Source of the DNA: Eledone cirrhosa | Taxonomy: Eukaryota | Assembly (NCBI GenBank): GCA_964016885.1 | Contig: OZ024743.1 | Coordinates: 204,290,001-204,354,000 of the forward strand | Length of the DNA stretch: 64,000 nucleotides | Direction: 5' to 3' | Part shown: positions 7,605 through 50,899 of the stretch, piece by piece | How positions within the stretch are numbered: position 1 is the first letter of the stretch | How the letters are laid out: every line of letters begins with the position of its first letter | Made by a program: the position numbers and the translations under genes | Notes under the pieces: generated by a model | Databases searched by the model: none | Told to the model about the DNA's origin: nothing | Seen by the model: the letters and a program-made list of their open reading frames with translations, nothing else

Positions 7605-7783
7605 GGCAGGTGAATTGTCAGTATCGGGAGAGGGTCTGACATGCATAGCCACGTCCCTTTACGATCTGAGTTCAAATCCCGCCGAGGTTAACTTTGCCTT
7701 TCATCCTTACGGGGTCGATAAAATATAGTACCAGTAATGTACTGGGATAATTGCTGGCCTTGTGCCAAAAGAAGAAACAATTA
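7605..7783 (+). mobile_element. tRNA-derived SINE
   Basis: B box GAGTTCAAATCC, then shared core actttgcctttcatccttacggggtcgataaa..gtaccag and tail ggccttgtgccaaaag..gaaacaatt. Confidence 0.85.
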
Positions 7784-7789
7784 TTTTAT

Positions 7790-18305: not shown

Positions 18306-19269
18306 GAAGGGAATAATAATAATAAGGGAAGAAGACGCACGAGGTGACGGAGGTCATGAAATCGCTCCCGTAAGTTTTGAATTTTTAACATATTTAAATC
18401 ATTTGTGAAATAACAACTCTTAGTACAAATGCTACGTAAAGCACCCGGCTTGAGCCCCAAAAAATTCGGACCCAAAATATATTGTTATAAGGCTCAAATA
18501 TTCAAATATTCAACTTTGTATTGTACACTGTATATCCAAAAAAGAAAATGGCTATAAATGGAAGAAGAACCCCCCCCTCCTCTCCTCTGTCTACACTATA
18601 TAGGACAGCCAAAATCACCAACACCAGAAACTAGATACACCACCCACCCCATCATCTGTGTACACTAAACACAACAGCCAGATAACGGCATTTTCACCTC
18701 ACCGCCACCGCTCACTACGGCCATCATTACCACCACTATCCCATCACCGCCGCCACCACCCCTTGACTCCTTCACTGCTGCCACCGCTACAGCACCATCA
18801 CTACAGTAATACGGTCACATCACCGCCACCACTGCCTCGGTATCGACATCACCACCACCACTGTCTCAATATCGCTACCGCCGCCAGTCTCCCACTTCTC
18901 CCTGCTGGCTGCTACTTCCACATTATAGAATTCCTACTACTAACAAAGAGGAAGGCATCAAAATATATAGATAGACTCAAAAGAAAAAAAGAAAAAACAA
19001 ACAACAAAACCAAAGCAGCACAGCAACAACAGCAAAAACGAGAAAAACAAACAGAGAAAAACAAAAACAAAAACAAAAAAAGAAACCCCAAAAACGTAAA
19101 GAAAATAAGAATGAAGAGAGAAGCAGGCGGACGGACAGAGAAGAGGGGGGGAAAAGTAAAACTTAAAAAACAAAAACTAAGTCAGACATTCGAACACTAC
19201 ATTACAATGAAACTTATGCTTATTCATTTTTGGGGCCCTTTCTGCCTGTGTGTTTGTTTGTTTATGTGT

Positions 19270-22200: not shown

Positions 22201-22888
22201 ATATCTACAAGGAGGAGGCTAGCCCACTGTGCAGGATCTGTGGAGAGAGAGAGGAGACTGTGGCTCACATTGTGTCCGAGTGTAAACACCTAGCCCAGAC
22301 CCACTATAAGGGCTGGAGACATTATGTGATGGGCAGGGTGATCCACTGGCACCTGTGCAAAGTAAACAATTTACCACATTCTGAGAAATGGTATGAGCAT
22401 AGGCCAGAGGCGGTGATGGAGAACAATCAGGTGAAGGTGCTGTGGGATTTTAGGATACAGACGGACAAAAAACTGGAACACAATAGACCTGACCTGGTGG
22501 TTGTGGACAAAGAAAAAAGATCGTGCCTGATTGTGGATGTGGCCTGCCCGTTCGACACGAGAGTGCAAGAGAAGGAGAGGGAGAAAATTAACCGATACCA
22601 GGACCTAAAGTGGGAGGTGAAAAGGATTTGGAACTGCCATGAAGTCAAAGTGATCCCGATTGTCATAGGCGCACTGGGGACTATCTCCAAAAGTTTCCAG
22701 GGATGGTTAAAGAAAATCGGCCCCTTCACGCTTTTTGGAACGCTTCAAAAGGCATGCTTGCTTGGAACAGCAAGAACCCTCCGATACGTCCTGAATATCT
22801 GAGGCTGCAGGTAGCGGCTTGATATTCAATCCAACGGACTTTCCAGTTAACCAACATCAATGACTGAGATTCAAGGAATAACAACAAC

Positions 22889-22921
<33 letters not shown>
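19270..22921 (+). mobile_element. Near full-length R4/Dong-clade non-LTR retrotransposon (RT + restriction-like endonuclease), family A
   Basis: KSPGPDG, NYRPITCL, IDYRKAFD, GIFQGDSLSP, LFMDD, YKYLG, CCHC CRICGEREETVAHIVSEC, RPDLVV..IVDVACP, KINRYQDL; short 3' UTR and (AAC)/(TAA)n tail; 5' boundary approximate. Confidence 0.92.
19410..22802 (+). pseudogene. Dong/R4 ORF (~1130 codons) interrupted by one TAG at 21174-21176
   Basis: ORFs 19410-21176 and 21186-22802 are in the same frame; the sister copy has TGG (tcctggaaa) at this position. Confidence 0.88.
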
Positions 22922-22922
<1 letters not shown>

Positions 22923-25638
22923 TCAACAAGTGACATAGACATGCTGATAGAAATAATCAAGCAAAAAGTGTCGGCCAAAGCTCCTCGTATAAGGCGCTTT
23001 GAAAAACGATCTAGATTCTATAAGGACAATAATATGTTCAAAAACAACCAAAGAAACTTCTACAGAAAAATTGGTAAGTCAACAATAACTGCTAAGTCAA
23101 TACCACCCAAGGAGGAAGTGCAAGAATTCTGGGAAAAGATCTGGGCCGAAGAAAAAGTTCATAACATGGATAGACAGACAAATGAAAGATACAGCTCACC
23201 TTGAGGAACAAATATGGGAAAATATAACAGTTGAACAGTTGCGCTTGGCTCTAAGAAAAACCAGCAAATGGAAATCCCCAGGAAAAGACAAAATACAATT
23301 TTTTTGGATAAATGCCTTCACAGAGTCTCATGAGCTGTTAGCCCAACTTTACAATGAAATAGTTAAGGAGCCAGAAAAGATACCATCATGGCTAGTTAAC
23401 GGCATTACATTCCTGCTTCCGAAGAATGATGAGACAAACAATCCCCAAAATTACAGACCGATAACTTGCTTGACCACAATGTATAAAATTTTAACATCAG
23501 TCCTAACTGAATACACATATGACCACCTGATAACAAATGACCTATTTCCCATTGAGCAGAAAGGGTGTAAACGAGGCTCATATGGCTGTAGGGATCAGCT
23601 TTTGGTTAACAAAATGATACTGGAAGATTGTCATAATAGACACAAAAATCTATCGATTGCTTGGATAGATTATAAAAAAGCATTCGATAGTTTGCCACAC
23701 AGTTGGATTGAAAAATGTTTAGAGATTTTCAAAATATCCCCCGTTGTCAGGAGGTTTTTGTCATTCAGTATGAAGACATGGAAAACGACACTCCTTTTGA
23801 ATAGTGAAACAAAATCACTGGAAGCTGGAGAAGTTAATATTAATTGTGGAATTTTTCAGGGTGACTCTTTATCACCGCTTTTATTCTGCATCGCACTTAT
23901 ACCATTAAGTAAAATGCTCAATGAAACAAAACATGGAGATAAAGTCTATGACAAAACCATTAATCACTTGTTCTACATGGATGACCTGAAACTATTTGCA
24001 AAAAATGATGAACAATTGCAAGGGCTATTATCCACTGTGGAGCAGTTCAGTGATGACATTAAAAGCAACGTTCACCAGAGGAAAGCTGCTGAAGTGTTCA
24101 GACATTAATCTTGATCGGGGGAACGTGATAAGAGAACTTGATCAAGAAAAAACTTACAAATATCTAGGTGTTTGTGAAGGAGACGGAATCAAGCACTCGA
24201 CGATGAGGGAAAGGATAAGGAAGGAATGTTACCGCAGAGTAAGAGCAATCTTAAGAACGGAATTGAATGCAAGGAATAGGATCGATGCCATAAACACGCT
24301 TGCCATACCAGTAGTAACCTACAGTTACAATGTCATCAACTGGTCAAGCACAGAGATCCGTAGGCTCGATACAAAAATTCGAAAATTCTTAACCATGCAC
24401 AGAATGCATCACCCTAAGGCAGATATAGATAGAATATATCTCCCTAGGAAAGAAGGAGGACGTGGGTTAATCCAGTTAGACATTGCGTTGAAAACTGCAA
24501 CAATTGGATTATCTACATATCTAAGGGAATCACATGATTGGATGATCAAACTCGTTTTGAAACACGAAAGCATCAAAAGATCATATTCCATTACAAAAGA
24601 TGCACAAAGATACAGTAATGGACTACAAATTTCAGAAGTCCCATTTACTGCTGAAATGGAAAACACAGAAAAAGCAAAGCAGGTAAAAGTAACTGCAAAG
24701 AAAGAACTGCTACAGAAACTGGCTAAGAAGTGGCAAGAAAAGCCTCTGTATGGAAAATACCCAGAACGAGCTAACAATCCTGATGTTGACAAAACTTTAA
24801 CCCATCAGTGCTTGGCATCCTCTGGACTGAAATCGGAGACTGAAGGACTGATTATATCAGCACAAGATCAGTGTCTGCCAACAAAAAATTACCAAGCCAA
24901 CATAATAAAAAATGGATGCAGCCCATTATGCCGTGTATGCAAAACACAACCAGAGACCATTGACCATATAATTTCAATGTGCAGTCCTATACCTCCAACC
25001 CAATACCTAAACAGGCATGACAGAGCTGCACAATACATACATTGGATAATGTGTAAGCATTTTGACCTGCCCCATCAAAATAATTGTTGGGAGCATCAAC
25101 CACCACCCATACTTGAAAAAGATCACATCTCAATCTTGTGGAACTTTAGCATCCAAACAGACCGAAAAATAGATGCAAATAAACCTGATATAATACTGAA
25201 GGACTTTAAAAAGAGGGTATGCCTGCTAATTGATATGTCCGTTCCAATAGACAAGAATGTATCTATAAAAACATTTGAAAAATTGAGCAAGTATAAGGAC
25301 CTGGAGATAGAAATTGGAAAAATGTGAAAATTGAGAACTAAAACAATACCAGTGGTTGTAGGCACTCTGGGAATGATACCTAAGGGGTCTATTGATTACT
25401 TATCGCAAATCCCAGGAAACTCGCGTATAGGAGAAATACAAAAGATAGTACTAATGGGAACTGCCCATATACTAAGGAAGATTCTGTCAATATAACTACA
25501 TCACAAGTCTAAACACTAAAGATGCATGTGTGAGTATGTATATTCTTTCTTGAACATGGCGGACCTTGTTGTCTCTTGAGGTCACTGGTTGTGACTTGGT
25601 GATAACTCGTATGAACATAAAGCAAGATAAATGCAACT

Positions 25639-25693
<55 letters not shown>
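22922..25693 (+). mobile_element. 5'-truncated R4/Dong-clade element, family B
   Basis: WKSPGKD, NYRPITCL, LFYMDDLK, CRVCKTQPETIDHIISMC, KPDII..LIDMSVP; frameshifts; starts in the tail of element A and ends in (TAA)n. Confidence 0.9.
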
Positions 25694-25694
<1 letters not shown>

Positions 25695-25898
25695 CTACAT
25701 ATCTAAGGGAATCACATGATTGGATGATCAAACTCGTTTTGAAACACGAAAGCATCAAAAGATCATATTCCATTACAAAAGATGCACAAAGATACAGTAA
25801 TGGACTACAAATTTCAGAAGTCCCATTTACTGCTGAAATGGAAAACACAGAAAAAGCAAAGCAGGTAAATGCAACTGTAATAATAATAATAATAATAA
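25694..25898 (+). mobile_element. Mini-derivative of family B (internal piece + 3' terminus + TAA tail)
   Basis: Copy of ~24512-24687 fused at TAAA to terminal tgcaactg(taa)n. Confidence 0.8.
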
Positions 25899-28800
25899 TG
25901 TCGGTGGAAGAAGAAGAAGGAAAGGGACCAGAACCAACTGGACGAAAGAATTGAATAGAACTGTTATGCAATGTTACCTGAAGAGTAACCCCAAGGAGAA
26001 AGGCTATAGGAAACGGATGCATAACATCTGGAACGAGATTGGTCTATTTAAATTAGATGAACAAAAATTGGCCGGGCAGGCTCGGGTAATAAGAACTAAT
26101 GGGTGGATAAGCGAGCTGGAACTGGAGGAACTGAGCAGAGAGATTACGTTGGAAATGGAGGGTGGAGTATGCCAGGCAAACGAGCCAGTGGAAAATGAAG
26201 GTGAAGAGGTTGAGAGAACGGAGGAAGCATCCGAAGCAGACAATGATCTGAATGCTGAAATAAATAATTGTTTCTACTTTAGGAACAAGGCCAGCAATTA
26301 CCCAGTGCATTACTGGTACTTTATTTTATCGACCCCGTAAAGATGAAAGGCAAAGTCAACCTCGGCGGGATGGAACAAAGATACGGCCATTGAGGAGATG
26401 AATGCTGACGAGCTAGGACAAGATTTGGTTGATATCCTAAACTTAGTGGTAGATGAATTGAACAATGATAGTGGGAAACCTATGAACCTGAGATTTGTAG
26501 ACAGGAAAAAGTTAAAAGAAACAACAGCTAAGGTAAACAAAGTCATCCCATACCTTGAGGCAAGGAGCCTTCACCAGTGCAACAATATCCTGAAAGCAAC
26601 AATGCGGTGAGGAAATTACTTGGCATAAAAGCGAGAGGAAACAACAAACAAGAAAAATCAGAACCTTGGTGGAAGAAACAACTGAATGGTCAAATCAAGG
26701 AAATGAGAAATGACATTGGAAAGCTTGAGTCCCTACTGAATGGGACACTAAAAATAGACTGGAAATAAAGTACAAAACTAGGAGGTAAAAGCTAAATATT
26801 ATCATAGAGGAACTGAAGCAACGCATTGTAGCAAAGAGTGCAAAAATTAGGCGATACAAGAGCAGAGTCAGTCAGTATAGACAGAACCAACTGGAAATCA
26901 TCAGGCCCAGATGGTGTGCAGGGGTATTGGATTAAAAATATAACATCCCTCCACCCCAAACTGACAACCATGTTCAATGACTGCTTGATGTCAGGTGAGG
27001 TACCAGAGTGGTTGACAAAAGGTACTACAGTTCTGGTAATGAAAGACCGAATCAAGGGTAATGATGTTACCAACTATAGATCTATCACATGTCTGTCCGT
27101 AATGTGGAAACTTTTGACAAGCATTATGTCTGAGGAAATCTACCATCACCTCCACACAAACAACTTGTTACCGGACGAACAGAAAGGATGCCGAAAGAAG
27201 TCCCGTGGTACAAAGGACCAGTTAGTTATTGATAAGATGGTAATGAGGAATTGCAAGAGGAGACACACTGGTCTTGCCATGGGATGGATAGACTACAAAA
27301 AGGCATTTGACATGGTGCCTCATTCTTGGATCACCAAAAGCCTAGAGATCTTCAAGGTGTCAGATAACATCAGACAGTTGTTGGGCAAAAGTATGAAGTC
27401 CTGGAAAACAGAATTAACATCAGCTAAAGAATCCTTGGGAGGCGTGAAGATCAAGAGAGGTATCTTCCAGGGAGATAGTCTGTCCCCACTGTTGTTTGTC
27501 CTTGCCCTGATGCCCCTGACCATTATACTGCGAAAAGTGAGAGCAGGATACAAGTTGGGAAAGGGAGAGCTTACCATCAATCACCTCCTTTTCATGGACG
27601 ATCTTAAGCTCTTCGGGAAGAGTGAGGAGTTGGATGTGCTTGTTGAAACTGTCCGTATTTTCAGCAATGATATGATATATGTATGCAATTTCGTATTAGT
27701 AAGTGTGGAGTCCTTGTGATGAAGAGGGGGTAAATTGAGCAGAAGCAACGGAATCCAGGTACCAACAGGTGAGATGATAAAGGAAATTGACACTGAAGAA
27801 GGATACAAGTATTTGGGTGTTCTGGAGGCTGATGACATCAAGAACAAAAGAAATGAAGGAATTTATAAGATCTGAATACATTCGGAGAGTAAGGAGCGTA
27901 TTAAAGTCACATCTGAACAGTAGGAATGCCATAAGTGCAGTAAATTCCCGAGCTGTGTCTATTATTAGGTACAGTGCGAGAATTCTGAGATGGAATGTTG
28001 CTGAACAAAAAGAAATGGATAGGAAGACTAGGAAGCTATTGACTATCTACAACATGTTCCACAAGAGGAGTGATGTCGATAGACTCTACTTAAGGAGATC
28101 TGAAGTTGGAAGAGGTCTTATCAGCATAGAGGACTGTGTTCAGATGGAGAAAAACAACCTACACAAATACGTGACTGATAGTAAGGAGCCAATGCTCAGA
28201 ATTGTACTGAAGGAGAGGACAATAGACCAGGGGATGTCCAAGGAGGAAATAACAACAAGGAGAAAGAGCAGCCTTCATGAAAAATCCCTTCATAGTACAT
28301 TCTTTGAGAAAACTGAATTCAGAGATCCACAGACATGGAACTGGTTGAAAAGAGGAGACCTTAAAAAGGCTACAGAAGGAATGCTAATGGCTGCGCAAGA
28401 GCAGGCCCTCAAAACGAAGTGGTTGAAACACCATATTTACAAGGAGGAGGCTAGCCCACTGTGCAGGATCTGTGGAGAGAGAGAGGAGACTGTGGCTCAC
28501 ATTGTATCCGAGTGTAAATACCTAGCCCAGACTCACTATAAGGGCTGGAGACATTATGTGATGGGCAGGGTAATCCACTGGCACCTATGCAAAGTAAACA
28601 ATTTACCACATTCTGAGAAGTGGTATGAGCATAAGCCAGAGTCGGTGATAGAAAACGATCAGGTGAAGGTGCTGTGGGATTTTAGGATACAGACGGACAA
28701 GAAACTGGAACACAATAGACCTGACCTGGTGGTTTTGGACAAGGAAAAAAGATGGTGCCTCATTGTGGATGTGGCCTGCCCATTCGACACGAGAGTGCAA

Positions 28801-29064
28801 GAGAAGGAGAGGGAAAAAATTAACCGATACCAGGACTTAAAGCACTAGGTACTATCTCAAAAAGTTTCCAGGGATGGTTAAAGAAAATTGGCCCCGCCAC
28901 GCTTTTTGGAACGCTTCAAAAGGAATGCTTGCTGGGAACAGCAAGAACCCTCCGATACGTCCTGAATATCTGAGGCTGCAGGTAGTGGCTTGATATTCAT
29001 TTCAACAAACTTTCCAGTTAATTAACATCAATGACTGAGACTCAAAGAACAATAATAATAATAA
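25898..29064 (+). mobile_element. Second, degenerate copy of Dong/R4 family A with nested SINE fragment
   Basis: Colinear with 19500-22900; frameshifts, deletions near 26885 and 28845; antisense SINE piece at ~26263-26370. Confidence 0.9.
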
Positions 29065-29109
29065 TTGTTTCTACTTTAGACACAAGGTCAGCAATTACCC
29101 AGTACATTT

Positions 29110-29157
<48 letters not shown>

Positions 29158-29159
<2 letters not shown>

Positions 29160-32100
29160 TTTCTTTATTAACCACAAGGGTTTACATAAAGTAGACATTA
29201 AGGACAGTGCAGGACAATACAGGACGGTACAAATAGGCATTTCTGCGTGTAAAAAACAAAAACAGAGGATGTAAGAAAAAATAACAATGAAAAATTCCCC
29301 AATAGGGGGGAGACTTCGGAGGGACATTTGTGGAGAAAGCCCAGTAAAATGCCATAATGACCCTGACCACCAAGGAAAGTGCCCTCTCCCAGTTTTCCAC
29401 CTTTAATTTACAGATATATACTCACTCGGGCCATTCTTGCTTCTCTCACCCATCTTTCAACAAAATGCTGGGAAGAGAGCACTTCCCTCTCTACCCTGAT
29501 TTTCCTTTTCAAATGAAATTTGAAAAAGTTAATCAGGGCATCACCGAAGAGGTATGTGCACGTCTTCAGCCCTTTCAAACGTGTCCACCATACTATCTCT
29601 TTCGCCATGGCCACCAGACAGATAAAAACTGCCTGCCCTTCCAGGCTAAAGGAAGAGGGCGGGGCAATCCTCATGATGGACTCAGCTGATAGCTGGATCC
29701 GTCCTACACGTGACAGCAGGTATTCGACATAAACCCACAAGTCAGCAATGCTCGGACACTGGACGAGTGCGTGCAGGACGGTTTCGTCGCCCTGCGCGCA
29801 TCTCGGACATTCCCGGCTGACGGCACCTCCATGCCTGTAGAGTTTATCCCGAACTGGCAAAGGTCCTCAGTAGCAGTGCCAGGCCAGGGATTTCTGGAAG
29901 TTGTCCATAGGCCCCGGCCCGAAAGTCCTTCCGAAGAGATTGGCTAGTTGATTTTCGTCGACGCTTAGAGTTTCTCCAAGTGCATCGTCGCTCTTCCCCT
30001 CCACTAATCCTCTATAGAACGCCAAAGTGGAGTGTCCACCGATCACATTGCCCGATTGGTCGAGGGCTGTGAGCGCCTGAAGACATTCCAGTCTCCAAGC
30101 GCTCCCTCTCGGTCTTCGCTTGACCCAGGACTGCAGCTCCGTCAAGGAGACGAGCTGGGGAAAGACGTGTCTAGCAAACGGCGACCACACCTGATCACCG
30201 TCGAGGAACAGGTGGAGATGTCGTAGCCTGAGCGCGTGTCTGCGCATCATCATCCACGGCATGCCCAGCCCTCCACGTAGCGGGTGTTTACAGCAGATGG
30301 ACCGCCTGACCATCGGAGCGCGTCCCTTCCACAAAAAGCGAAAGAGCAAACGCTCCAGCGCAGTCAGGCGGGGCTTAGGACAAGGTACGACGGTCAGGCG
30401 GTAGTAGTTGACTAACGCGATGTACGCGTTGGCTACCTCCGCTTGACCTTTCAGGGATCGCTTCCTCTCCGCTCATTTCTGGGTGAGAGAAGCCACCCTG
30501 CTCGTCACCTCGTCCCAGTTTTTGTCTGTATGGAGGTCCGGACCGATCCAGACCCCTAGCAATTTAACCGGTCCGTCCGTCCAGCGCCCGACGACGCTGT
30601 TGGGCGGCATGGACCTGCCTCTCCAGGTGCCGAGCTGCAGGCCCACTGACTTTTCCTGGTTGATCATTGCTCCTGTCACCGCTTCGTATTCTCTTAGTGT
30701 AGTGCCGATCGCCTCGATGTGTTTGGCGTTCGACACCACTACGGTGACATCGCCCGCATATGCTGACACGGATATTCCGCATCCTAGTTCGCGCGGGACA
30801 CCCCTCAACGTTTCCAGTTTGTGCAGTAATGGCTCGAGAGTCAATATGTACAAGAGGGACGAGAGGGGACATCCTTGGCGGACCGAGCGCATGATGTTGA
30901 ACGGTTCCGAAAGGTAACCGTTCACTCTCACCACAGAGCAGATGTCGCTGTGTATGGCAGCGATCCAGCCTCTGAAGACGGGCCCAAAGCCAGCCGCCCT
31001 CAGGACTGCCGCTAGGTAACGATGGTCGACCCTATCGAAAGCTTTCGACTGATCTAAATTGATCAAGGACCCACCCGTGCCAGGTTCCCTAGCTACGCTC
31101 TCTACGATGTATCGCAGGTGGAGGGGGAGGTTGTCGTGGATGGATCTGTCGGGATTGGCGCATGTCTGCGCCTCTTCCACCAGACCACCAACGACAAGCG
31201 CCAACCTCTCTGCTAGCACCTTGGCCAAAATCTTGAACTCTGTGTTTAGCAGAAATATGGGCCTGAAATTATCTATGTTATCCCCCTTGTTCGGATCATT
31301 GCTCTCAGCAGCGTCACAGCTCCTCGGCTCACAGAGCTGGGAATTCTCCCGTTCTGTTGCCAGTTGCAGTAGACGTCCGCCAAGAGGCCTCCGAACAAGT
31401 CTGGCATCTGTACGTAAAGTTCATAGGGCAGACCATCCAAACCAGGCGATTTACCCCTTGTGCAGCCAGTCATTGCCTCCCGTACTTCAGCGGCTGTTAT
31501 CGGCTTTTCGCAACACTCCCCCTCAGTGGCCGAGAGCGGCGGCAGTCCGTCGAGGTAGACACTAAAGTCCATCCCTCGATCCGGCCCGCCACTGCCCCCG
31601 AACAGCTGCGCAAAGTGTCGATGAAAAGCTTCACACATTTTCCCGGGATCGTGGCTTTGTTGCTACGACGCGCCTCCGCCACTCGGGCCCATTGAACGGC
31701 TTTCGTCTCCTCGTGTCTGAGAGCACGCACCCTAGCTCTGACAACGCAGCCTTCGTGCTTTGCATTGAAGAATTGGCCAAGGGCCAATATCACCGCAAGT
31801 ACGTCGGTCGCGATGCCTTTTCTAGTAGCCGGGTCCTCGTCTATGAAGCCTATCTAAGTCAAGCACACAGATCACGAATGTGTGGTCCGTGTAGCTGACT
31901 ATCTTGAATTGTGGACAGCCTATGCTAGACCTATCTATTTCCCTACAAAATACTCTATCTAGATATGATCTGGATGACCCTATGCGATTTGTCCAAGTCC
32001 ACATTGGCACATTCGGGAAATCCAATCGGTACGTGTCAGACAGTTCAAAACACCTGAGCAGGTTGGTGAGGCTCTTATACCATCCTCCCCTATCCGCTAA

Positions 32101-34112
32101 TCCCACACAGTCCCAGCGTGCATCTAAGATCCCGTTCCAGTCGCCCACTAACACTAAAGAGCGGGACGTTCCAAGAAAGGTCTCCAGACGCCGCAAGAAA
32201 TCAGGCCGCCCTGCTCCTGTCGGGGCATAGACGGCCACTATCCTAAAAGCTTGCCCGTCTCCGCTGGTCACGTCTAGCACCACCAACTTACCTCCGTGCG
32301 TCGGAGATTCTGGTCTCGCTGATGACCACTACATCTATGTTTAGTGACCTGAGGTCGTTGAGCAGGTGGCCCTGCTTCCATGACGACCCCAAGCCACGCG
32401 CATTTATGCTGCCTATTCTGAGTGAGATCATGTTGAAATGGAGTGGAAAAGATGGGAAAGACCCTTACCTTACTTCTCGTAGAGGAAGGATGGTTTATCC
32501 ATCCCTTTTCACTTCATCGTCTGGTGAAGGGACCGTTGAATCGTCCCTTCGGCTGGTCGTCGGCTCTTTTGTGAGTATATCCGAATATACTCTCCGGTTG
32601 AGTGTCCCTCCTAGGTCTCTGAAATCACCAACTGCGTTGGGGAATTTCGTTTTAATGTTAGAGTATTGTTTCTGTGCTATTCTTACCAGTCTTATGTTCG
32701 TTGGTGTTTTGATTGGTGCTGGTATTATGTAGTCGTGCTGTGAAATGTTTGTGTGTTCAATTATGTAAGTCATTAGTTTCTTGTTGTGTGTGTTTTGTTG
32801 TTGTGTTTGCGATGTTGGTGCTTGTGGTGGTGGTGTTGAAGGTGTTGTTGTTGTTTGCGGTGGTGTTGCCGCCGGCGGTGATGGTGGTGCTAGTGTGGGT
32901 GGTGATGGTGTTGATGGTGTTGCTGCTGTAAGTCTCTTTGCAGTAGCCTTTACCCTTTTTTCATTTCTTTCCTCCCTTTTCGAAGGCGACGATGCGCTGC
33001 TTCTGCGTTTGAGCCTTCTTGCGACCTTTTGCCATTCCTCTCCCACCTCACACTCCATGTCTGATTCTGTGAGGTCGGGGAGGGATACCAGCTCCAATCT
33101 TTCACTTGTTGTTGTTGGTGATGTTTGCAGTGGAGTCTCTGTTGCAGCTGCAGTTGGTATTACTGTTGTTGTTGTTAATACTTCCACTGCTGCTGCTGTT
33201 CTTGATTTCCGTGGCGTGGGTATGGGTGCCACGGACTTATCCTTCTTGGTTGCCGCCTGTCCTGTTGCTGATAGCAGTGGAGCCGGTTTCGTAAGGAGGG
33301 GGGTTTCCTCCTTTCTCAGGGTCGTCTCATTGCAGAAGGACCTGAAGTGAGTCTTCGATCCACAGCGAAAGCATTTCGGGCGTTTGGCCTCAACACTTAA
33401 GGGCAGTTGACTGCTGTTATCGAAGTCTATCACATCCGGGATAGCTTCGATGCACTCCTGGTTGGTTTGGATTAACATCTCAATGGAGTTGCCAACCCAA
33501 TCTTCTCGTACTTTTTTCTGTACTTGCAGTACAGTTGTTTTGTCCTCGATTTCGACGAGGACAGTCGCGGCCAGCCAAGAAGGGGCCATCCCGGGGGTAG
33601 TGGGTCAGTTTGACCCTCACAATTTTTTGCCCGCACCAACACCAACACCATTTCCTCGTTCCTTGGGGTCACTAAGGATTGAGCCTTTGTCTCCTGAGGT
33701 GTGGCAAAAAGCACGTCCACGGTAGCATATTTCTTGCCTCGGGTGATATGCGTTTTCCGCTGCCACACAGACCCTAAGGCTTTTTGTATTTGAACCTCTG
33801 TGGCTCTTTCCACCCTACGGGATTTTCTGCTTACTGTACGGTACGTGACCGTACAGTGCTGTTGGGTTTCGAAAAATGTTTCGGCTGCCTTGCAGATGGC
33901 TCGTTGTCCAGTTTTCGTCACCATCTTCTTTGCTTCCTGTAATTCCTCATTTGTTATAAGGATGGTTTCCAGGTTCTTTGCGATACCTGCAAACGAGATT
34001 GGTTTTTCTTTCTTGTTGTTGTTGTTGCGTCAGAGCTGCTGTTACTTTTGTTGTTGCTGCTGGTACTACGACCGCCGCCGCCGCTGTTGCTGTGGTTGTT
34101 GTTGTTGTTTGC

Positions 34113-37990: not shown

Positions 37991-38085
<95 letters not shown>

Positions 38086-38129
38086 ATAAAAGAGAAAACA
38101 CAGGTAAGCATTAAGAGAAGGATTTTATC

Positions 38130-38547
38130 CAGGTATTTACGACCGTTTCATTGGTAAGTGCAACCTTATATTGCTATACTGCAAATAGCAGCCACTCAAT
38201 TATAATTGTTGTTCGCAGTCCAAATTTTCAAAATAGTGAGTAAGTTACTCTTGAAATAATTCTTAATATATAGAGAAAAACATTTATTTGGATTGTATTT
38301 ACTAGTATAGAGAGAGAGGAATCAGGTGACGGGACAAACGGAATAGTATAGAGAGAGAGGAAGGGTGAAGAGGTAGGAAGTAGAGTGTCAAACTGAGATG
38401 GAGGGAGGGGTAGAGGTGGAAGGATTCTTTGGTCAGTTTTGATAGCAGATATCATGTCGTGGAATGTAGTGAGTTAAAGAGAATTAAATTGATCATAGTG
38501 TGAAGGATGGATAGAGAGGGAGAGCGAGAGGGGGGAGATATAAAGAG

Positions 38548-38620
<73 letters not shown>

Positions 38621-40850
38621 AAACATAAAGATAATAATGACAAAAATAAAAGCAAAGAGAGGGTGAGAAAGAAGAAAGGAAAAGATAGCCAAGAAGGGGA
38701 GGGAAGGAAGGAAGAAAACGAAGAAATAGAAGAAGGAGAAGAGATGGATATATGCATTGGTTTTGTGGGTAATTAAAAGGGTTTAGATACAACAAGAGGG
38801 TATAAAGTTTAAGTATATGTAGTTTGTCAGTTGGTAGTAAAAGGTTAAGGGTTTGATTTGTAGTGCGAAAACTTCTCTTTGAGTCTATGGTTACAATAAA
38901 TCGATCTTTCGATTTTATTGTTGAGTAACTTATTCTTCGAACTCAAGATGTGGAACAGCTCAAGGTCGCATAATGGACAGCTTCTCATACCACTCCGATA
39001 TTGGGGCGCGTTCGATAATTTTTTCCACTTCAGGGTGTATTGATGGTTACTTTCCCTCAGTTGCCAGGTCTTGTTTGCAAGGGTAGTTACATAACGATGC
39101 TGGGAATGTTTCATTGCGTAACGGTGTGTATACCAACGGGCTTTAAATGTATTCCCAGTCGCTCCGATGTAATACCATTTCTGCTTGTCTGATTCCACTG
39201 TGCATTGGTAAACCAGGTTAGACTGCATACATTCATTATGTAATGGACAGGTTTCAGGTAGGTGGCAGTTACAGTTCTTATCATGGGCAACTTTGGCGTT
39301 ATTGGTGGGCTGCGATGCCTGTACAAGTGTGTTACGTTTTGTTTGCCTATTAGCGGGTGGTTGTGTATTAGATATTCTGTTGTGTTCGGTGGTGATTGTA
39401 TTGTTATTGTTGTAAATGTGCCTTTTGGTGTTGTTATGTATCTTTTTAGCGTTAAGCTTCTTAATGTGTGCCTCTATATTTGGTGCCATGGATTAAGATA
39501 GTCTAATAGATTTAGTGTTAAGGATTTTGCTGTATCTATGTGAATCTGGAAAGTGCTTAGTTATTATTCTAAAGAAGGTAGAGGGTAGGTTAGTATTAAT
39601 AGAGGTGTTAAATATGGGGTTGAACCAAATATATTTTCTACTGCGTGACTTGTTTGATTTCGATGTTGTATTTCTATTTGCCGTATACTTTGCAGTTCTA
39701 TGCGTAAGTGCGTGTGTGCGTGTGTTACCGGAGTTTGTGTTATGCGTGTTCGTGTGTGCTTCACGGAGGCTTTCATCTATATATTCTACTCTATCTAAGT
39801 GGCCTGCCTTGTCTAATGCGGTATTGTAGTATTCTGCATGTTCTTCGAAGATTTGTCGGTTAGACGAGAGGCGGGTGATCCTAAGGGATATGCTGCGTGG
39901 AATGGATTTAATTATGGATAGTGGGTCGTTTGAGTTACAGTTGATGTATGCTAAGTTTTCATTAATCTTGTGAAAGGTCTTATAAGTCGCGTATTTAGGT
40001 TAAGCGTCGCGTCTAGAAAGTTAACTGTTTTAGTGCTATACTCATACGTTATGCTAAGGCCTAGTTTTCCGAGAGTCTTTCTAATATTCTTACGGAGTCT
40101 TTCTATGCTCTGGTTATTTAGGTTCTTAACTAGAAGGGCGTCGTCTCTGTAGATTCCACCGTGAAGGTCGCTAAACTCACTTTGTAAACTATGGGCTATG
40201 TAAACACCTACTAAATCTGTGACTTGAGCCGAGTCGATAGCTCCCATCGTGATGTCAAAGTTATTTAATCTATCCTTACGTTCCCAATAGGCGTTTTCAA
40301 ATTTAATTATTCTTTTCCTAGCAGCTAATATGATTTTTATCTCGTTGTCTGTTATGTCAGAATTGGCTTTAGCGAATGCTAAGGCTTTATCCAAGGTGTT
40401 GGGGGATATAGATGAGTAATAATCGTTAATGTCAAATTGTATAAATTTAGATACTTCTTTGTTAGCTATATTGTTAAACCACTTAATTGTTTCGGTAGCG
40501 TTACCCCATTGTTTAATCACTAGTTTATTCTTCATTTGTGCTATCACTCTGTCTAATATATGTTTACTAATTTTCCCGATGTCCGATTAGGACGGGCATA
40601 TAAGTCTAATTGTGGGGTTATAATCAAAATTTACCTTGTGGTCCTTGAGGTTAAATGTGGGGGTACATGGCCTTAGTGGCTCCGTTCTGTCGTCTATTCC
40701 TAGGTGTTTGACTATATTGTGTGCTTCGTTGTTGATGATTATCAATGCCGCCTCATTAGTTTTTTTGTATTTCCTATGTAATTCCTTCCGTATGAAGCTA
40801 TTGTATGTATTTACATCCATCGGAATTCTTACAAACTTGTGGAGTTACCC
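38130..40850 (-). mobile_element. Penelope-like retroelement (RT + GIY-YIG), 5'-truncated
   Basis: LKDHK..PTIRLICP, FIQFDINDYYSSIS, ITMGAIDSAQVTDLVG, GGIYRDDAL, VNFLDATL; CNCHLPETCPL..C, LVYQCTV..YYIGAT..FKARWYTH, CPLC. Confidence 0.93.
38134..38235 (-). ncRNA. Type I hammerhead candidate (U3-A8 variant)
   Basis: UAUU-UUGAAAA-UUUGG...CCAAU-GAAA-CGGUCG-UA^AAUA at the 3' end of the Penelope element. Confidence 0.6.
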
Positions 40851-41069
40851 CTAACCGTACGTTGAAACCATCCATGAAACTGGCTTTCTTAACCAAGAAC
40901 TGGATCACAATAAGCAATTTTTTGCTTCTCTAACTATATATATATATATATATGTTTATATAGATATATAAATGCATTTGTATATATATATATACAAATA
41001 AAAGGCAGAGCTAATAACTCATACTGATACCCTGTAATTAACAAGCTGAAAGTATAGATACTGAGCATT

Positions 41070-41330: not shown

Positions 41331-41777
41331 AATAATATATGCAGTAATAGACACACGATTTACTGTGTTTATTGCTACCTATATTATTATGTATATATAT
41401 ATATATACATTTATGTATGGTATATTTGGCAATATACCGTATGTTTAATTAAAAACATTTAGAAGACCATACGCTATCAGTTTTAAAGTAGTGACTATGT
41501 CACTTACTTCTTTTCGCCGAAAGAAGGGAGAAAAGCTCACAGTCTATTTCACGCTGGTTGCCGTTCATTATTTGCCGTTCTGCAAAGATTAGGTATTACG
41601 ATTGGTGCGATGTATAAATGAATGTATGTATAGTATATTTGGCAATCTACCGTATGTTTCATCAGAAGACCATACGCTATCAGTTTTTTGGATTGACCGG
41701 CATTCGGTCTGTATAATCAGCTCCTGATTATTACTGGAATTCTATAAAAATCCAGCTTCTATAATTTTCGACGGAAG

Positions 41778-41841
41778 CAGGGGGTGCGGGGCTCTGATGA
41801 ACGCCAACCAGCGTGAAACACACTGTCAGCTTCTTTCCCTG
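41778..41841 (+). ncRNA. Type I hammerhead ribozyme, intact core, extended stem I
   Basis: CAGGGG.GGGGCU-CUGAUGA-ACGC(caacca)GCGU-GAAA-CA(cac)UG-UC^AGCUUC..UCCCUG. Confidence 0.85.
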
Positions 41842-42062
41842 ATAGTGTATGGTCTTCCAAATATTTTTAATTAAACATACGGTATATTGCCAAATATACC
41901 ATACATACATTCATATATATATATATAAATGTATATGTATGTATATATATATACATTTATATATATATATAAATGTATATGTATGTATATATATATATAC
42001 ATTTATATATATATATATAAATGTATATATATATATATATAAATACATTTATATATATATAA

Positions 42063-42718: not shown

Positions 42719-42920
42719 GTATATGTATATATATATTATTATTATTACTTTCAAAGTATAGGATGTCATGAATGATACAAAATGAAACATATGTCTTGTT
42801 TCCAAAAACATTTCAAGATAGAATTCAGAGAATCAAATCGAGCCTTAATCATTATAAGAAAATGATTGAAATATATTCATACACAGATAAGTGTGCACTA
42901 AGACATATCAAAACTTGGAG

Positions 42921-43370
42921 CTAGAGACAATCTACACTGAAAGTAAGACTACATAGTTCGTTGAGTATCTTATTAAATTTAATAAAAAATTTAAAACAGA
43001 ACACCTGATAACCATCAAAATATTTCCCTCATATGTATTCTCCACAATATACTGACTGCTATTTCTAGTGGTCGAGAACCTTTCATGTCGTTGAGAGTGC
43101 TAAAATTCATGTGTTGAGACCATGCACGTTTAGCCACTTTCAACACTGGATGGGGTGAGATTAGATGATTTTGAAATTCCCTCACTGATGATCCGTTTCA
43201 AATTATCTAATTTCGCCGTAATTTGGTGAAATGTATTCTGATTTTGTGGAGAATACATATGAGGGAAATATTTTGATGGGTATCAGGTATTCTGTTTTAC
43301 ATTTTTTATTAAATTTAATAAGATACTCGATGAATTATGTAATCTTACTTTCAGTGCAGATTGTCTCTAG
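42921..43370. repeat. Inverted repeat, 127-bp arms, ~196-bp structured spacer
   Basis: 42921-43047 versus 43244-43370. Confidence 0.88.
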
Positions 43371-43783
43371 TTATATGTTATAGTTGTATATAGTGTATAC
43401 ATAACTATAAATAATATTATATATATATATATATATATTTGTGTGCGCGTGTGTGTGTGTATGTATGTATGTATATATATATAATATATATAAATGTATA
43501 TATATATATACATATATACATATATATAAATGTATATATATATATGGATATATATATATATATACAATTAAGTTAAAGTGTACATCTACATATGTATACG
43601 GAAGTATTAGTATGCATATAAATACACACATGTATACATATGTACATGTACTCAGCTTTTCACTAGACACTTTACAGTGAGTGTCAGCTAGTCTGTATGT
43701 AACCACACAGGCGGACCGGGTTTTAGAGTCATACGAGTTTTCAAGGAAACACATTTCCTCTATTCTCCAGAGGGCCAGACAGG

Positions 43784-43828
43784 AATATTGGACTAGTTTC
43801 GATGTTATTACATCTCATCAGCAATATT
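43784..43828 (-). ncRNA. Type I hammerhead of the array unit (first of 12 minus-strand copies, every 469 bp to 48943-48987)
   Basis: AAUAUUG-CUGAUGA-GAUGU(aaua)ACAUC-GAAA-CUAG-UC^CAAUAUU. Confidence 0.93.
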
Positions 43829-46800
43829 TACCCATCTTCCGGCTTCTCTGGAGAATTGTAAAAGCACATATCGTTATATGCTTTTTCTATGAAAATTAGT
43901 AGTGGGTAGACCAATTTGCATAGAACGTGAGTCATTGTACGCACCGGTTCAGCGGAAACGATAAAAACAAATAACGAAACGAAATCAAACTTCGTTTCGC
44001 TTCTAACTCACTTTTGTATGACTGACGCTTAAACAATTAAGTTAAAGTGTACATCTACATATGTATACGGAAGTATTAGTATGCATATAAATACACACAT
44101 GTATACATATGTACATGTACTCAGCTTTTCACTAGACACTTTACAGTGAGTGTCAGCTAGTCTGTATGTAACCACACAGGCGGACCGGGTTTTAGAGTCA
44201 TACGAGTTTTCAAGGAAACACATTTCCTCTATTCTCCAGAGGGCCAGACAGGAATATTGGACTAGTTTCGATGTTATTACATCTCATCAGCAATATTTAC
44301 CCATCTTCCGGCTTCTCTGGAGAATTGTAAAAGCACATATCGTTATATGCTTTTTCTATGAAAATTAGTAGTGGGTAGACCAATTTGCATAGAACGTGAG
44401 TCATTGTACGCACCGGTTCAGCGGAAACGATAAAAACAAATAACGAAACGAAATCAAACTTCGTTTCGCTTCTAATTCACTTTTGTATGACTGACGCTTA
44501 AACAATTAAGTTAAAGTGTACATCTACATATGTATACGGAAGTATTAGTATGCATATAAATACACACATGTATACATATGTACATGTACTCAGCTTTTCA
44601 CTAGACACTTTACAGTGAGTGTCAGCTAGTCTGTATGTAACCACACAGGCGGACCGGGTTTTAGAGTCATACGAGTTTTCAAGGAAACACATTTCCTCTA
44701 TTCTCCAGAGGGCCAGACAGGAATATTGGACTAGTTTCGATGTTATTACATCTCATCAGCAATATTTACCCATCTTCCGGCTTCTCTGGAGAATTGTAAA
44801 AGCACATATCGTTATATGCTTTTTCTATGAAAATTAGTAGTGGGTAGACCAATTTGCATAGAACGTGAGTCATTGTACGCACCGGTTCAGCGGAAACGAT
44901 AAAAACAAATAACGAAACGAAATCAAACTTCGTTTCGCTTCTAACTCACTTTTGTATGACTGACGCTTAAACAATTAAGTTAAAGTGTACATCTACATAT
45001 GTATACGGAAGTATTAGTATGCATATAAATACACACATGTATACATATGTACATGTACTCAGCTTTTCACTAGACACTTTACAGTGAGTGTCAGCTAGTC
45101 TGTATGTAACCACACAGGCGGACCGGGTTTTAGAGTCATACGAGTTTTCAAGGAAACACATTTCCTCTATTCTCCAGAGGGCCAGACAGGAATATTGGAC
45201 TAGTTTCGATGTTATTACATCTCATCAGCAATATTTACCCATCTTCCGGCTTCTCTGGAGAATTGTAAAAGCACATATCGTTATATGCTTTTTCTATGAA
45301 AATTAGTAGTGGGTAGACCAATTTGCATAGAACGTGAGTCATTGTACGCACCGGTTCAGCGGAAACGATAAAAACAAATAACGAAACGAAATCAAACTTC
45401 GTTTCGCTTCTAATTCACTTTTGTATGACTGACGCTTAAACAATTAAGTTAAAGTGTACATCTACATATGTATACGGAAGTATTAGTATGCATATAAATA
45501 CACACATGTATACATATGTACATGTACTCAGCTTTTCACTAGACACTTTACAGTGAGTGTCAGCTAGTCTGTATGTAACCACACAGGCGGACCGGGTTTT
45601 AGAGTCATACGAGTTTTCAAGGAAACACATTTCCTCTATTCTCCAGAGGGCCAGACAGGAATATTGGACTAGTTTCGATGTTATTACATCTCATCAGCAA
45701 TATTTACCCATCTTCCGGCTTCTCTGGAGAATTGTAAAAGCACATATCGTTATATGCTTTTTCTATGAAAATTAGTAGTGGGTAGACCAATTTGCATAGA
45801 ACGTGAGTCATTGTACGCACCGGTTCAGCGGAAACGATAAAAACAAATAACGAAACGAAATCAAACTTCGTTTCGCTTCTAACTCACTTTTGTATGACTG
45901 ACGCTTAAACAATTAAGTTAAAGTGTACATCTACATATGTATACGGAAGTATTAGTATGCATATAAATACACACATGTATACATATGTACATGTACTCAG
46001 CTTTTCACTAGACACTTTACAGTGAGTGTCAGCTAGTCTGTATGTAACCACACAGGCGGACCGGGTTTTAGAGTCATACGAGTTTTCAAGGAAACACATT
46101 TCCTCTATTCTCCAGAGGGCCAGACAGGAATATTGGACTAGCTTCGATGTTATTACATCTCATCAGCAATATTTACCCATCTTCCGGCTTCTCTGGAGAA
46201 TTGTAAAAGCACATATCGTTATATGCTTTTTCTATGAAAATTAGTAGTGGGTAGACCAATTTGCATAGAACGTGAGTCATTGTACGCACCGGTTCAGCGG
46301 AAACGATAAAAACAAATAACGAAACGAAATCAAACTTCGTTTCGCTTCTAACTCACTTTTGTATGACTGACGCTTAAACAATTAAGTTAAAGTGTACATC
46401 TACATATGTATACGGAAGTATTAGTATGCATATAAATACACACATGTATACATATGTACATGTACTCAGCTTTTCACTAGACACTTTACAGTGAGTGTCA
46501 GCTAGTCTGTATGTAACCACACAGGCGGACCGGGTTTTAGAGTCATACGAGTTTTCAAGGAAACACATTTCCTCTATTCTCCAGAGGGCCAGACAGGAAT
46601 ATTGGACTAGCTTCGATGTTATTACATCTCATCAGCAATATTTACCCATCTTCCGGCTTCTCTGGAGAATTGTAAAAGCACATATCGTTATATGCTTTTT
46701 CTATGAAAATTAGTAGTGGGTAGACCAATTTGCATAGAACGTGAGTCATTGTACGCACCGGTTCAGCGGAAACGATAAAAACAAATAACGAAACGAAATC

Positions 46801-49020
46801 AAACTTCGTTTCGCTTCTAACTCACTTTTGTATGACTGACGCTTAAACAATTAAGTTAAAGTGTACATCTACATATGTATACGGAAGTATTAGTATGCAT
46901 ATAAATACACACATGTATACATATGTACATGTACTCAGCTTTTCACTAGACACTTTACAGTGAGTGTCAGCTAGTCTGTATGTAACCACACAGGCGGAGC
47001 GGGTTTTAGAGTCATACGAGTTTTCAAGGAAACACATTTCCTCTATTCTCCAGAGGGCCAGACAGGAATATTGGACTAGTTTCGATGTTATTACATCTCA
47101 TCAGCAATATTTACCCATCTTCCGGCTTCTCTGGAGAATTGTAAAAGCACATATCGTTATATGCTTTTTCTATGAAAATTAGTAGTGGGTAGACCAATTT
47201 GCATAGAACGTGAGTCATTGTACGCACCGGTTCAGCGGAAACGATAAAAACAAATAACGAAACGAAATCAAACTTCGTTTCGCTTCTAACTCACTTTTGT
47301 ATGACTGACGCTTAAACAATTAAGTTAAAGTGTACATCTACATATGTATACGGAAGTATTAGTATGCATATAAATACACACATGTATACATATGTACATG
47401 TACTCAGCTTTTCACTAGACACTTTACAGTGAGTGTCAGCTAGTCTGTATGTAACCACACAGGCGGACCGGGTTTTAGAGTCATACGAGTTTTCAAGGAA
47501 ACACATTTCCTCTATTCTCCAGAGGGCCAGACAGGAATATTGGACTAGCTTCGATGTTATTACATCTCATCAGCAATATTTACCCATCTTCCGGCTTCTC
47601 TGGAGAATTGTAAAAGCACATATCGTTATATGCTTTTTCTATGAAAATTAGTAGTGGGTAGACCAATTTGCATAGAACGTGAGTCATTGTACGCACCGGT
47701 TCAGCGGAAACGATAAAAACAAATAACGAAACGAAATCAAACTTCGTTTCGCTTCTAACTCACTTTTGTATGACTGACGCTTAAACAATTAAGTTAAAGT
47801 GTACATCTACATATGTATACGGAAGTATTAGTATGCATATAAATACACACATGTATACATATGTACATGTACTCAGCTTTTCACTAGACACTTTACAGTG
47901 AGTGTCAGCTAGTCTGTATGTAACCACACAGGCGGACCGGGTTTTAGAGTCATACGAGTTTTCAAGGAAACACATTTCCTCTATTCTCCAGAGGGCCAGA
48001 CAGGAATATTGGACTAGCTTCGATGTTATTACATCTCATCAGCAATATTTACCCATCTTCCGGCTTCTCTGGAGAATTGTAAAAGCACATATCGTTATAT
48101 GCTTTTTCTATGAAAATTAGTAGTGGGTAGACCAATTTGCATAGAACGTGAGTCATTGTACGCACCGGTTCAGCGGAAACGATAAAAACAAATAACGAAA
48201 CGAAATCAAACTTCGTTTCGCTTCTAACTCACTTTTGTATGACTGACGCTTAAACAATTAAGTTAAAGTGTACATCTACATATGTATACGGAAGTATTAG
48301 TATGCATATAAATACACACATGTATACATATGTACATGTACTCAGCTTTTCACTAGACACTTTACAGTGAGTGTCAGCTAGTCTGTATGTAACCACACAG
48401 GCGGAGCGGGTTTTAGAGTCATACGAGTTTTCAAGGAAACACATTTCCTCTATTCTCCAGAGGGCCAGACAGGAATATTGGACTAGTTTCGATGTTATTA
48501 CATCTCATCAGCAATATTTACCCATCTTCCGGCTTCTCTGGAGAATTGTAAAAGCACATATCGTTATATGCTTTTTCTATGAAAATTAGTAGTGGGTAGA
48601 CCAATTTGCATAGAACGTGAGTCATTGTACGCACCGGTTCAGCGGAAACGATAAAAACAAATAACGAAACGAAATCAAACTTCGTTTCGCTTCTAACTCA
48701 CTTTTGTATGACTGACGCTTAAACAATTAAGTTAAAGTGTACATCTACATATGTATACGGAAGTATTAGTATGCATATAAATACACACATGTATACATAT
48801 GTACATGTACTCAGCTTTTCACTAGACACTTTACAGTGAGTGTCAGCTAGTCTGTATGTAACCACACAGGCGGACCGGGTTTTAGAGTCATACGAGTTTT
48901 CAAGGAAACACATTTCCTCTATTCTCCAGAGGGCCAGACAGGAATATTGGACTAGTTTCAATGTTATTACATCTCATCAGCAATATTTACCCATCTTCCG
49001 GCTTCTCTGGAAGATGGGTA

Positions 49021-49065
49021 AATATTGCTGATGAGATGTAATAACATCGAAACTAGTCCAATATT
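49021..49065 (+). ncRNA. Type I hammerhead of the array unit (plus-strand copies; also 49490-49534 and 49959-50003)
   Basis: aatattgctgatgagatgtaataacatcgaaactagtccaatatt read directly. Confidence 0.93.
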
Positions 49066-50466
49066 CCTGTCTGGCCCTCTGGAGAATAGAGGAAATGTGT
49101 TTCCTTGAAAACTCGTATGACTCTAAAACCCGGTCCGCCTGTGTGGTTACATACAGACTAGCTGACACTCACTGTAAAGTGTCTAGTGAAAAGCTGAGTA
49201 CATGTACATATGTATACATGTGTGTATTTATATGCATACTAATACTTCCGTATACATATGTAGATGTACACTTTAACTTAATTGTTTAAGCGTCAGTCAT
49301 ACAAAAGTGAGTTAGAAGCGAAACGAAGTTTGATTTCGTTTCGTTATTTGTTTTTATCGTTTCCGCTGAACCGGTGCGTACAATGACTCACGTTCTATGC
49401 AAATTGGTCTACCCACTACTAATTTTCATAGAAAAAGCATATAACGATATGTGCTTTTACAATTCTCCAGAGAAGCCGGAAGATGGGTAAATATTGCTGA
49501 TGAGATGTAATAACATCGAAACTAGTCCAATATTCCTGTCTGGCCCTCTGGAGAATAGAGGAAATGAGTTTCCTTGAAAACTCGTATGACTCTAAAACCC
49601 GGTCCGCCTGTGTGGTTACATACAGACTAGCTGACACTCACTGTAAAGTGTCTAGTGAAAGGCTGAGTACATGTACATATGTATACATGTATGTATTTAT
49701 ATGCATACTAATACTTCCGTATACATATGTAGATGTACACTTTAACTTAATTGTTTAAGCGTCAGTCATACAAAAGTGAGTTAGAAGCGAAACGAAGTTT
49801 GATTTCGTTTCGTTATTTGTTTTTATCGTTTCCGCTGAACCGGTGCGTACAATGACTCACGTTCTATGCAAATTGGTCTACCCACTACTAATTTTCATAG
49901 AAAAAGCATATAACGATATGTGCTTTTACAATTCTCCAGAGAAGCCGGAAGATGGGTAAATATTGCTGATGAGATGTAATAACATCGAAACTAGTCCAAT
50001 ATTCCTGTCTGGCCCTCTGGGAATAGAGGAAATGTGTTTCCTTGAAAACTCGTATGACTCTAAAACCCGGTCCGCCTGTGTGGTTACATACAGACTAGCT
50101 GACACTCACTGTAAAGTGTCTAGTGAAAAGCTGAGTACATGTACATATGTATACATGTGTGTATTTATATGCATACTAATACTTCCGTATACATATGTAG
50201 ATGTACACTTTAACTTAATTGTTTAAGCGTCAGTCATACAAAAGTGAGTTAGAAGCGAAACGAAGTTTGATTTCGTTTCGTTATTTGTTTTTATATATAT
50301 ATACATTTATATATATGTATATATATATATATATAAATGTATATATATATGTATATATATATAAATGTATATATATATATATATATATATACATACATAT
50401 AAATGTATATATATGTATATATGTGTATATATATATATATATAAATTTTTGTATATATACATATAA

Positions 50467-50567
<101 letters not shown>

Positions 50568-50899
50568 CATATAAATTTATATATATATATTGAAACCCAC
50601 TTCTGCTTGCCTGAACTCAAAGACCGAGATCTTCAGATGTTGTCCTCACCTGAAATCACATCTGATCTGTAACTGGATTGACATTCCTACGATAACTCAA
50701 CCACTTTGAACTCCTTCTCTGCTCTTTAGTTCCACTACGGTGTTTTTACCTGCTGAATTCACGTTCTATACTCTCGTATTCTCTTTCTCCCTTATCTCCC
50801 CTTATATTTAGACCTTTTCCTATGTCAATTCCACCCCCCCCCCCTACTTTCTGCCTTACCACTCACACACCCAATTTTTTTTATTTTTAGATATTTATT

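Follow-up and report, generated by a model that had tools for sequence, protein, structure and literature searches.

A head-to-head retrozyme insertion within a (TA)n microsatellite of Eledone cirrhosa, likely made by a Penelope-like enzyme and lengthened afterwards in DNA

Animal retrozymes without long terminal repeats (non-LTR retrozymes) form families 51-972 bp in length, and their dependence on Penelope elements has already been argued (Li, Clavereau and Pollet 2026, 10.64898/2026.07.22.740005). Among their hammerhead ribozymes, those of newt and axolotl with a one-pair helix III cut weakly on their own but efficiently when dimerised (Cervera and de la Pena 2020, PMC7229834). Insertions of Penelope-like elements with an endonuclease are recognised by inverted 5'-truncated arms, a tail on one side only and a (TA)n target (Craig et al. 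2021, PMC8557442); the tail of these elements lies between two reverse transcriptase (RT) start sites, the enzyme nicking and extending both strands (Frangieh et al. 2024, PMC11167929). Here we analyse 64,000 nucleotides of the Eledone cirrhosa genome (the window: assembly GCA_964016885.1, contig OZ024743.1, positions 204,290,001-204,354,000), in which positions 43564-50294 hold an array of 469-bp units with 15 type I hammerhead sites. We conclude, with a probability of about 0.85, that this array is a single insertion of an abundant non-LTR retrozyme family, made of two back-to-back arms within a pre-existing TA microsatellite, that it likely entered through a Penelope-like RT with a GIY-YIG endonuclease, and that duplication at the DNA level likely lengthened its left arm later.

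The units are 99-100% identical to one another and lie between two (TA)n-rich tracts, much as a first, sequence-only reading of this DNA had described. That reading took the array for a single tandem; it is instead a head-to-head pair of arms of 11.6 and 2.7 units, and this overlooked inversion is the most informative feature of the locus. Matches to microRNAs at the arm junction in an Rfam search are explained by the palindrome alone. From such a near-perfect palindrome of near-identical units, sitting within a segmentally repeated region, one might suspect that the inversion or the array length is an artefact of assembly or of fold-back reads. The arms, however, are not mirror copies, since their variants and ends differ; the same junction is found in two paralogs, and dozens of loci with different junctions follow the same end rule. 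Of all the explanations that we considered, an artefact is the hardest to credit.

The unit was found far beyond this locus, its dispersal having been proposed as a check: the 469-bp family has 3,166 exact core matches on many contigs (reversed-pattern control: 0), and these make up most of the 3,818 genome matches to a generic hammerhead core pattern (29 in the reversed control). We inspected 62 insertions, namely the window, 29 loci found by similarity and 32 from contig C1, picked in order of position, leaving out five fetched loci that duplicated this set. Arms face outward, and their ends, at unit position 222-231 (short end) or 294-300 (long end), abut (TA)n. Among the two-armed insertions that could be classified, 39 of 39 carry one short and one long end (two of them, L137 and L145/L156, scored by eye). 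Among the end matches listed for C1, 29 long and short pairs lie within 5 kb of each other vs 1 pair of two short ends, these pairs overlapping in part with the 62 insertions. The long end joined to TA has 2,209 exact matches in the genome, a number not comparable with the 1,112 matches of the short-end pattern, which misses the window's own subfamily. A search of sequencing runs listed no RNA run with the family, a result that carries no weight in either direction, and six other candidate runs. A related retrozyme family of ~499 bp (L162:8100-9501, L148:4200-5900, L159 and L178) has internal (TA)n, a GUA cleavage triplet and a U-U mismatch at the stem II base.

The same layout occurs in autonomous Penelope-like elements of this genome. 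In a Neptune-type family encoding RT and GIY-YIG, with a 38-nt tail, all 10 fully visible copies (17 fetched) show one end of each kind, and so do the 7 readable copies (9 fetched) of a Hydra-type family with a 142-nt tail and the motifs RWK, DKT and CxCX5C. The Neptune-type family is very young, 146 of 150 scored matches to its 784-aa open reading frame (ORF) being 99-100% identical to the query; intact Hydra-type ORFs of 784 and 801 aa are also present in the genome. Two observations on these families stand apart from the retrozyme. The Neptune-type family (L166:5299-6663, 6597-8948) has a separate 455-aa upstream frame, with no Pfam match, that overlaps the RT-endonuclease frame, and the scan found no standard hammerhead in it. 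Within the window, positions 38083-40934 hold a broken Hydra-type element (ORF pieces at 38845-40586, minus strand) with a terminal repeat and with intact relatives of ~800 aa elsewhere; the scan found no standard hammerhead here either, in a clade described as always having one.

The unit itself has no RT or GIY-YIG ORF and is thus no autonomous Penelope-like element; it also lacks LTRs, a primer binding site and a polypurine tract, and its arm ends pass straight into (TA)n. At 37.5% G+C, with a longest ATG-initiated ORF of 64 aa and a longest stop-free frame of 84 aa, it encodes no credible protein, as had been noted; its length, at first called fairly large, lies inside the published family range. 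A circle of the unit is predicted to be 69% paired (-154.7 kcal/mol), and a 362-nt part of it folds with z = -6.7 relative to shuffles. Judged on sequence, the locus shows each testable defining feature of animal non-LTR retrozymes. The class first proposed, a young Penelope-dependent non-LTR retrozyme, is borne out by the thousands of copies spread over the genome, by hammerhead changes that compensate one another, and by an inverted arm and tail of Penelope type and an empty target site.

All 15 hammerhead sites have the 7-bp stem I and the 5-bp stem II first ascribed to them, and none of 5000 dinucleotide shuffles of the unit yields even a loose hammerhead in the descriptor scan. The further claim that every unit has a complete core does not hold, and the one that all 15 sites are ribozymes is not supported: the scan finds the full core in 11 sites, with intact runs of 5 and 3 consecutive units, and four sites (cuts at 48011, 47542, 46604 and 46135) read GAAG for GAAA at A15.1. 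The A15.1-to-G change is known as inactivating from hammerhead mutagenesis, and these four sites are predicted to be inactive. One more site has a G-U wobble at the stem II base, leaving 10 of 15 fully standard hammerheads. Helix III reads ACUAGU, giving the monomer one closing pair with a palindromic tetraloop and a dimer a 6-bp duplex (-4.8 kcal/mol); on this model the hammerheads are predicted to cut as dimers through the palindromic helix III, and self-cleavage is predicted at GUC^C. The Rfam search that had been suggested gave a divided answer, with nothing at the gathering score and a sub-threshold match to Hammerhead_HH9 (31.8 bits, E 5.7e-6, gathering 52). No second ribozyme was found by the descriptor scan on the opposite strand of the unit.

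Covariation was examined in 11 sequences from the 469-bp family, its subfamilies and the related ~499-bp family. Six of the 15 hammerhead pairs have changed on both sides, with covariation in stems I and II, and 88.5% of the cells in the pair table are paired vs 35-49% in slid controls; we prefer this pair table to a shuffle test, which is inflated by the relatedness of the sequences. The compensatory changes indicate that the hammerhead is under selection as an RNA fold.

The history of the locus can be followed in its paralogs. The window lies inside a tandem segmental repeat at 203.8-204.5 Mb with at least six copies spaced 120-155 kb apart, three of which are only 0.15% apart. In one paralog, L070 (2.6% diverged), a plain TA tract of 454 bp takes the place of the element and its two tracts, which measure 143 + 296 bp at the filled site. 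Since L070 holds the TA tract alone, the element entered an existing microsatellite. Two paralogs, L068 and L069, are uninformative, their anchors being missing or the site rearranged. In L021 and L022 (0.15% from the window) we find the same junction and the same right arm, with a left arm of 1.6 units. Three variants absent from all other fetched loci mark the ten extra units of the window, in repeated blocks of period 2 and period 3. Single-unit mutations number four in the short right arm and none in the long left arm, and four of the seven GAAG cores of the genome are found here. Because the paralogs have 1.6 units and the extra units share private periodic variants, the simplest reading is that the left arm likely expanded in DNA after segmental duplication, and not by rolling-circle copying. 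The length of the array, previously viewed as a record of RNA processing, would then likely be the product of this later expansion.

It could instead be that the 11.6-unit arm was written at once as the reverse transcriptase went round a circle, perhaps a trimer with an intact ribozyme at either end, and that the paralogs later lost ten units. A 1,407-bp block of two dead ribozymes and one live one is indeed exactly repeated twice with intact ribozymes at its bounds, long arms exist at other loci (14.7 units at L047), and the tree of the three paralogs is a star, compatible with one contraction in the common ancestor of L021 and L022. To this must be added that the mutation-count test is only marginal (p = 0.048); both the star tree and this test speak for caution about our own reading. 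Yet the GAAG variant occurs in such a block nowhere else (7 copies genome-wide), the second repeated block (253A plus standard) carries intact ribozymes, single-unit mutations are confined to the short arm of the window, and the short left arm is identical in both paralogs. We therefore consider writing in one go unlikely.

The expansion of the left arm in place also invites a more radical view, namely that the whole family is satellite DNA derived from a Penelope terminal repeat, spreading at the DNA level only and keeping the hammerhead as a passive relic; local amplification from terminal repeats has in fact been proposed by Li et al. (10.64898/2026.07.22.740005). At thousands of TA tracts that are not linked to one another, however, the 3' ends are fixed and paired; these ends, the variable 5' truncation and the empty site need RNA-templated insertion, and compensatory stem changes need selection on the RNA fold. 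These observations largely refute satellite spread, which we hold to be very improbable.

What RNA was copied can be asked of the arms themselves. Their 5' ends are scattered, with no pile-up at the cut (1 of 95 scored arms vs ~1.5 expected; 13 of the 108 arm ends were dropped as rotated-query artefacts), and 1 of 236 unit-junction crossings has an indel (two spurious short matches having been dropped from 238). With no enrichment of 5' ends at the cut and a single crossing with an indel, the template must have been continuous across it. Jumping between cut linear monomers was not supported, given the same absence of a pile-up and near absence of junction indels. Arms of one insertion differ by 0.7% vs 3.2% between loci, and in 24 of 40 rows no arm is closer than the partner arm (ties counted); a shared template, a shared source or subsequent conversion would each account for this. 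Simple fold-back copying was also discarded as a general source of the second arm: the longer arm can be either one, and most junctions are asymmetric.

A continuous template could be a circle or an uncut multimer, and for this part of the reading we put the circle a little above even odds and the multimer a little below. That both predict the same arrays tells against any firm choice. With an uncut multimeric linear transcript as template, the same element and enzyme would be at work, the weak one-pair helix III would cut little and no circle would be required. Monomeric hammerheads of this helix III type do cut poorly (6% in 1 h for axolotl Amex1; likewise the minimal motifs of Penelope-like elements), and at several loci private variants recur in neighbouring units, a pattern that multimer templates or local duplication would leave. 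On the other hand, L039 (9.5 units with single-unit variants only) and L035 (4 + 4 identical units) fit repeated copying of one monomer, and circles are the form in which related animal retrozymes accumulate. The base immediately 5' of the cut also varies between units or arms within 6 of 57 multi-unit loci (L144, L027, L142, L143, L145 and L161) vs ~1 per position, as a chemically distinct junction might produce. This variation is only a hint of a ligation scar: one of the six loci is an array end, another position reaches 7, and the base tolerates change. In the right arm of L144 the triplet just 5' of the cut is GUG, predicted to be uncleavable. Taken as a complete explanation, the uncut multimer is a serious candidate that we nonetheless think less probable than insertion from a circle.

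The sequence of events that we propose would begin with transcription of a source copy, from which hammerheads paired via their palindromic helix III would cut out 469-nt monomers, to be circularised by a host ligase. A Penelope enzyme would then nick both strands of (TA)n, with the short site as the start of one cDNA and the long site as that of the other; each cDNA would cross successive unit junctions on a template continuous over the cut site, and the two cDNA ends would be joined by microhomology. At this locus, the segment would later have been triplicated with the insertion in it, after which the left arm of one copy would have gone from 1.6 to 11.6 units while one dead-ribozyme mutation spread to four units. 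A read-through transcript of the whole locus is predicted to fold arm on arm, which would block the junction-proximal ribozymes.

Three of 61 loci contain direct joins of the unit to Penelope-like sequence without TA between them (Table 1). No partner can be named from these chimeras, because template switching explains them no better than nested insertion does and they come from two clades. In a bolder version of our proposal, a single enzyme dimer would prime the two strands of the target, each at a different fixed site, using a ligated circular RNA that is miscopied where it was ligated, and the retrozyme-Neptune chimeras would name the young Neptune-type family as the driver; we offer this as speculative and rather doubtful. 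Eight other hammerhead loci were also considered and proved to be no homologous terminal repeats belonging to intact elements.

Several results weigh against the Penelope-driven insertion of a retrozyme as we describe it. Ten other two-armed loci have one end elsewhere or are composite (the remainder of the 62 being one-armed), and a targeted search confirmed two insertions with two short ends; the rule of one arm per site is strong, yet not absolute. The unit shares no terminal sequence with the elements of the window, with two Hydra-type families or with one Neptune-type family, and its ~70-nt tail equals neither the 38 nt nor the 142 nt of the autonomous families. A simple pattern scan of the unit found no promoter or Pol III boxes. 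Finally, one of nine predicted retrozymes cleaved in vitro in the report of Li et al. (10.64898/2026.07.22.740005).

Table 1. Coordinates of the array, its flanking tracts, selected hammerheads and the unit-Penelope chimeras (window positions unless a locus is given)
Feature	Position	Strand	Remarks
Left part of (TA)n-rich target tract	43421..43563	none	143 bp, by comparison with empty paralog L070
Left arm, 11.6 units, 12 hammerhead sites	43564..49011	ribozyme sense minus	3' end at short site, unit position ~227
Hammerhead, A15.1-to-G	46129..46173	minus	predicted inactive
Hammerhead, A15.1-to-G	46598..46642	minus	predicted inactive
Hammerhead, A15.1-to-G	47536..47580	minus	predicted inactive
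Hammerhead, A15.1-to-G	48005..48049	minus	predicted inactive
Junction-proximal hammerhead, G-U wobble at stem II base (48980)	48943..48987	minus	wobble common to both paralogs
Head-to-head arm junction	49000..49011	none	9-nt spacer + 3-nt microhomology
Right arm, 2.7 units, 3 hammerheads	49009..50294	ribozyme sense plus	3' end at long site, unit position 299
Intact type I hammerhead, palindromic one-pair helix III	49021..49065	plus	predicted cut between 49058 and 49059
Reference monomer, cut site to cut site, 469 nt	49059..49527	plus	37.5% GC, non-coding, strongly self-paired
~70-nt tail with 13-bp hairpin, right-arm end only	50223..50294	plus	
Right part of (TA)n-rich target tract	50295..50590	none	296 bp
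Unit-Penelope chimera, Neptune-type	L124:2920-4289		
Unit-Penelope chimera, Neptune-type	L144:4417-4672		
Unit-Penelope chimera, Hydra-type	L126:2378-3300		

Other elements are found elsewhere in the window. The one at positions 41349-41912, also flanked by TA, carries a type I hammerhead of its own (core at 41794, plus strand) as well as a terminal piece in inverted orientation, and positions 42737-43400 hold a TA-flanked element with 130-bp inverted arms (42921-43050 and 43241-43370), in which the descriptor scan found no hammerhead. Several broken LINE-type RT fragments (Pfam RVT_1, zf-RVT), some of them duplicated, occupy positions 18604-33604.

With the retrozyme class published and the Penelope link already proposed, the 469-bp family is in itself a catalogue entry. 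What the insertion layout adds is direct support for this link from genomic data, together with a countable rule, one arm for each start site, that is open to test in vitro. A long retrozyme array is not necessarily a record of rolling-circle copying: the short insertion at this locus likely grew as satellite DNA, and the count of 15 hammerheads is likely no such record. The locus contributes an empty target site, paralogs with a short left arm and a dead ribozyme that has spread. If paired priming on a ligated circle were true, the insertions would be a genome-scale record of an unresolved step of Penelope integration.

We found no paper on the 469-bp family or on inverted-arm retrozyme insertions, and the supplements of the Li and Cervera papers, Repbase or Dfam may contain the family. 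Word searches of the main texts of both papers (10.64898/2026.07.22.740005; PMC7229834) returned no inverted arms, tails or fixed paired ends for retrozymes, and the main text of an Octopus vulgaris repeat paper makes no mention of hammerheads. Like the animal non-LTR retrozymes described in those two main texts, the family consists of tandem non-coding units with one type I hammerhead each and a GC content below 50%, has a self-paired predicted RNA, a unit size in range and thousands of dispersed copies, and shares its genome with Penelope-like elements; it differs in being a new sequence family. With newt satellite 2 and the axolotl HHR_Amex1 (PMC7229834) it has in common the one-pair helix III, the palindromic tetraloop and a predicted dimer-dependent cleavage; sequence and unit length differ. 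Endonuclease-bearing Penelope-like insertions, as presented by Craig et al. and Frangieh et al. (PMC8557442, PMC11167929), share with ours the partial tandems, the inverted 5'-truncated arm, the tail at one end, the (TA)n target and the two internal start sites, whereas the retrozyme unit has no ORF, a tail of ~70 nt instead of 30-40 and no homology that we could detect to terminal repeats in the three autonomous families compared. A parallel in lifestyle is found in MRC1 and other Chlamys elements (PMC8557442), which are likewise non-autonomous passengers of Penelope type with multicopy head-to-tail insertions. In the description given there, these elements are similar to their autonomous partners at the 3' end and mostly lack hammerheads; in the 469-bp family the situation is the reverse.

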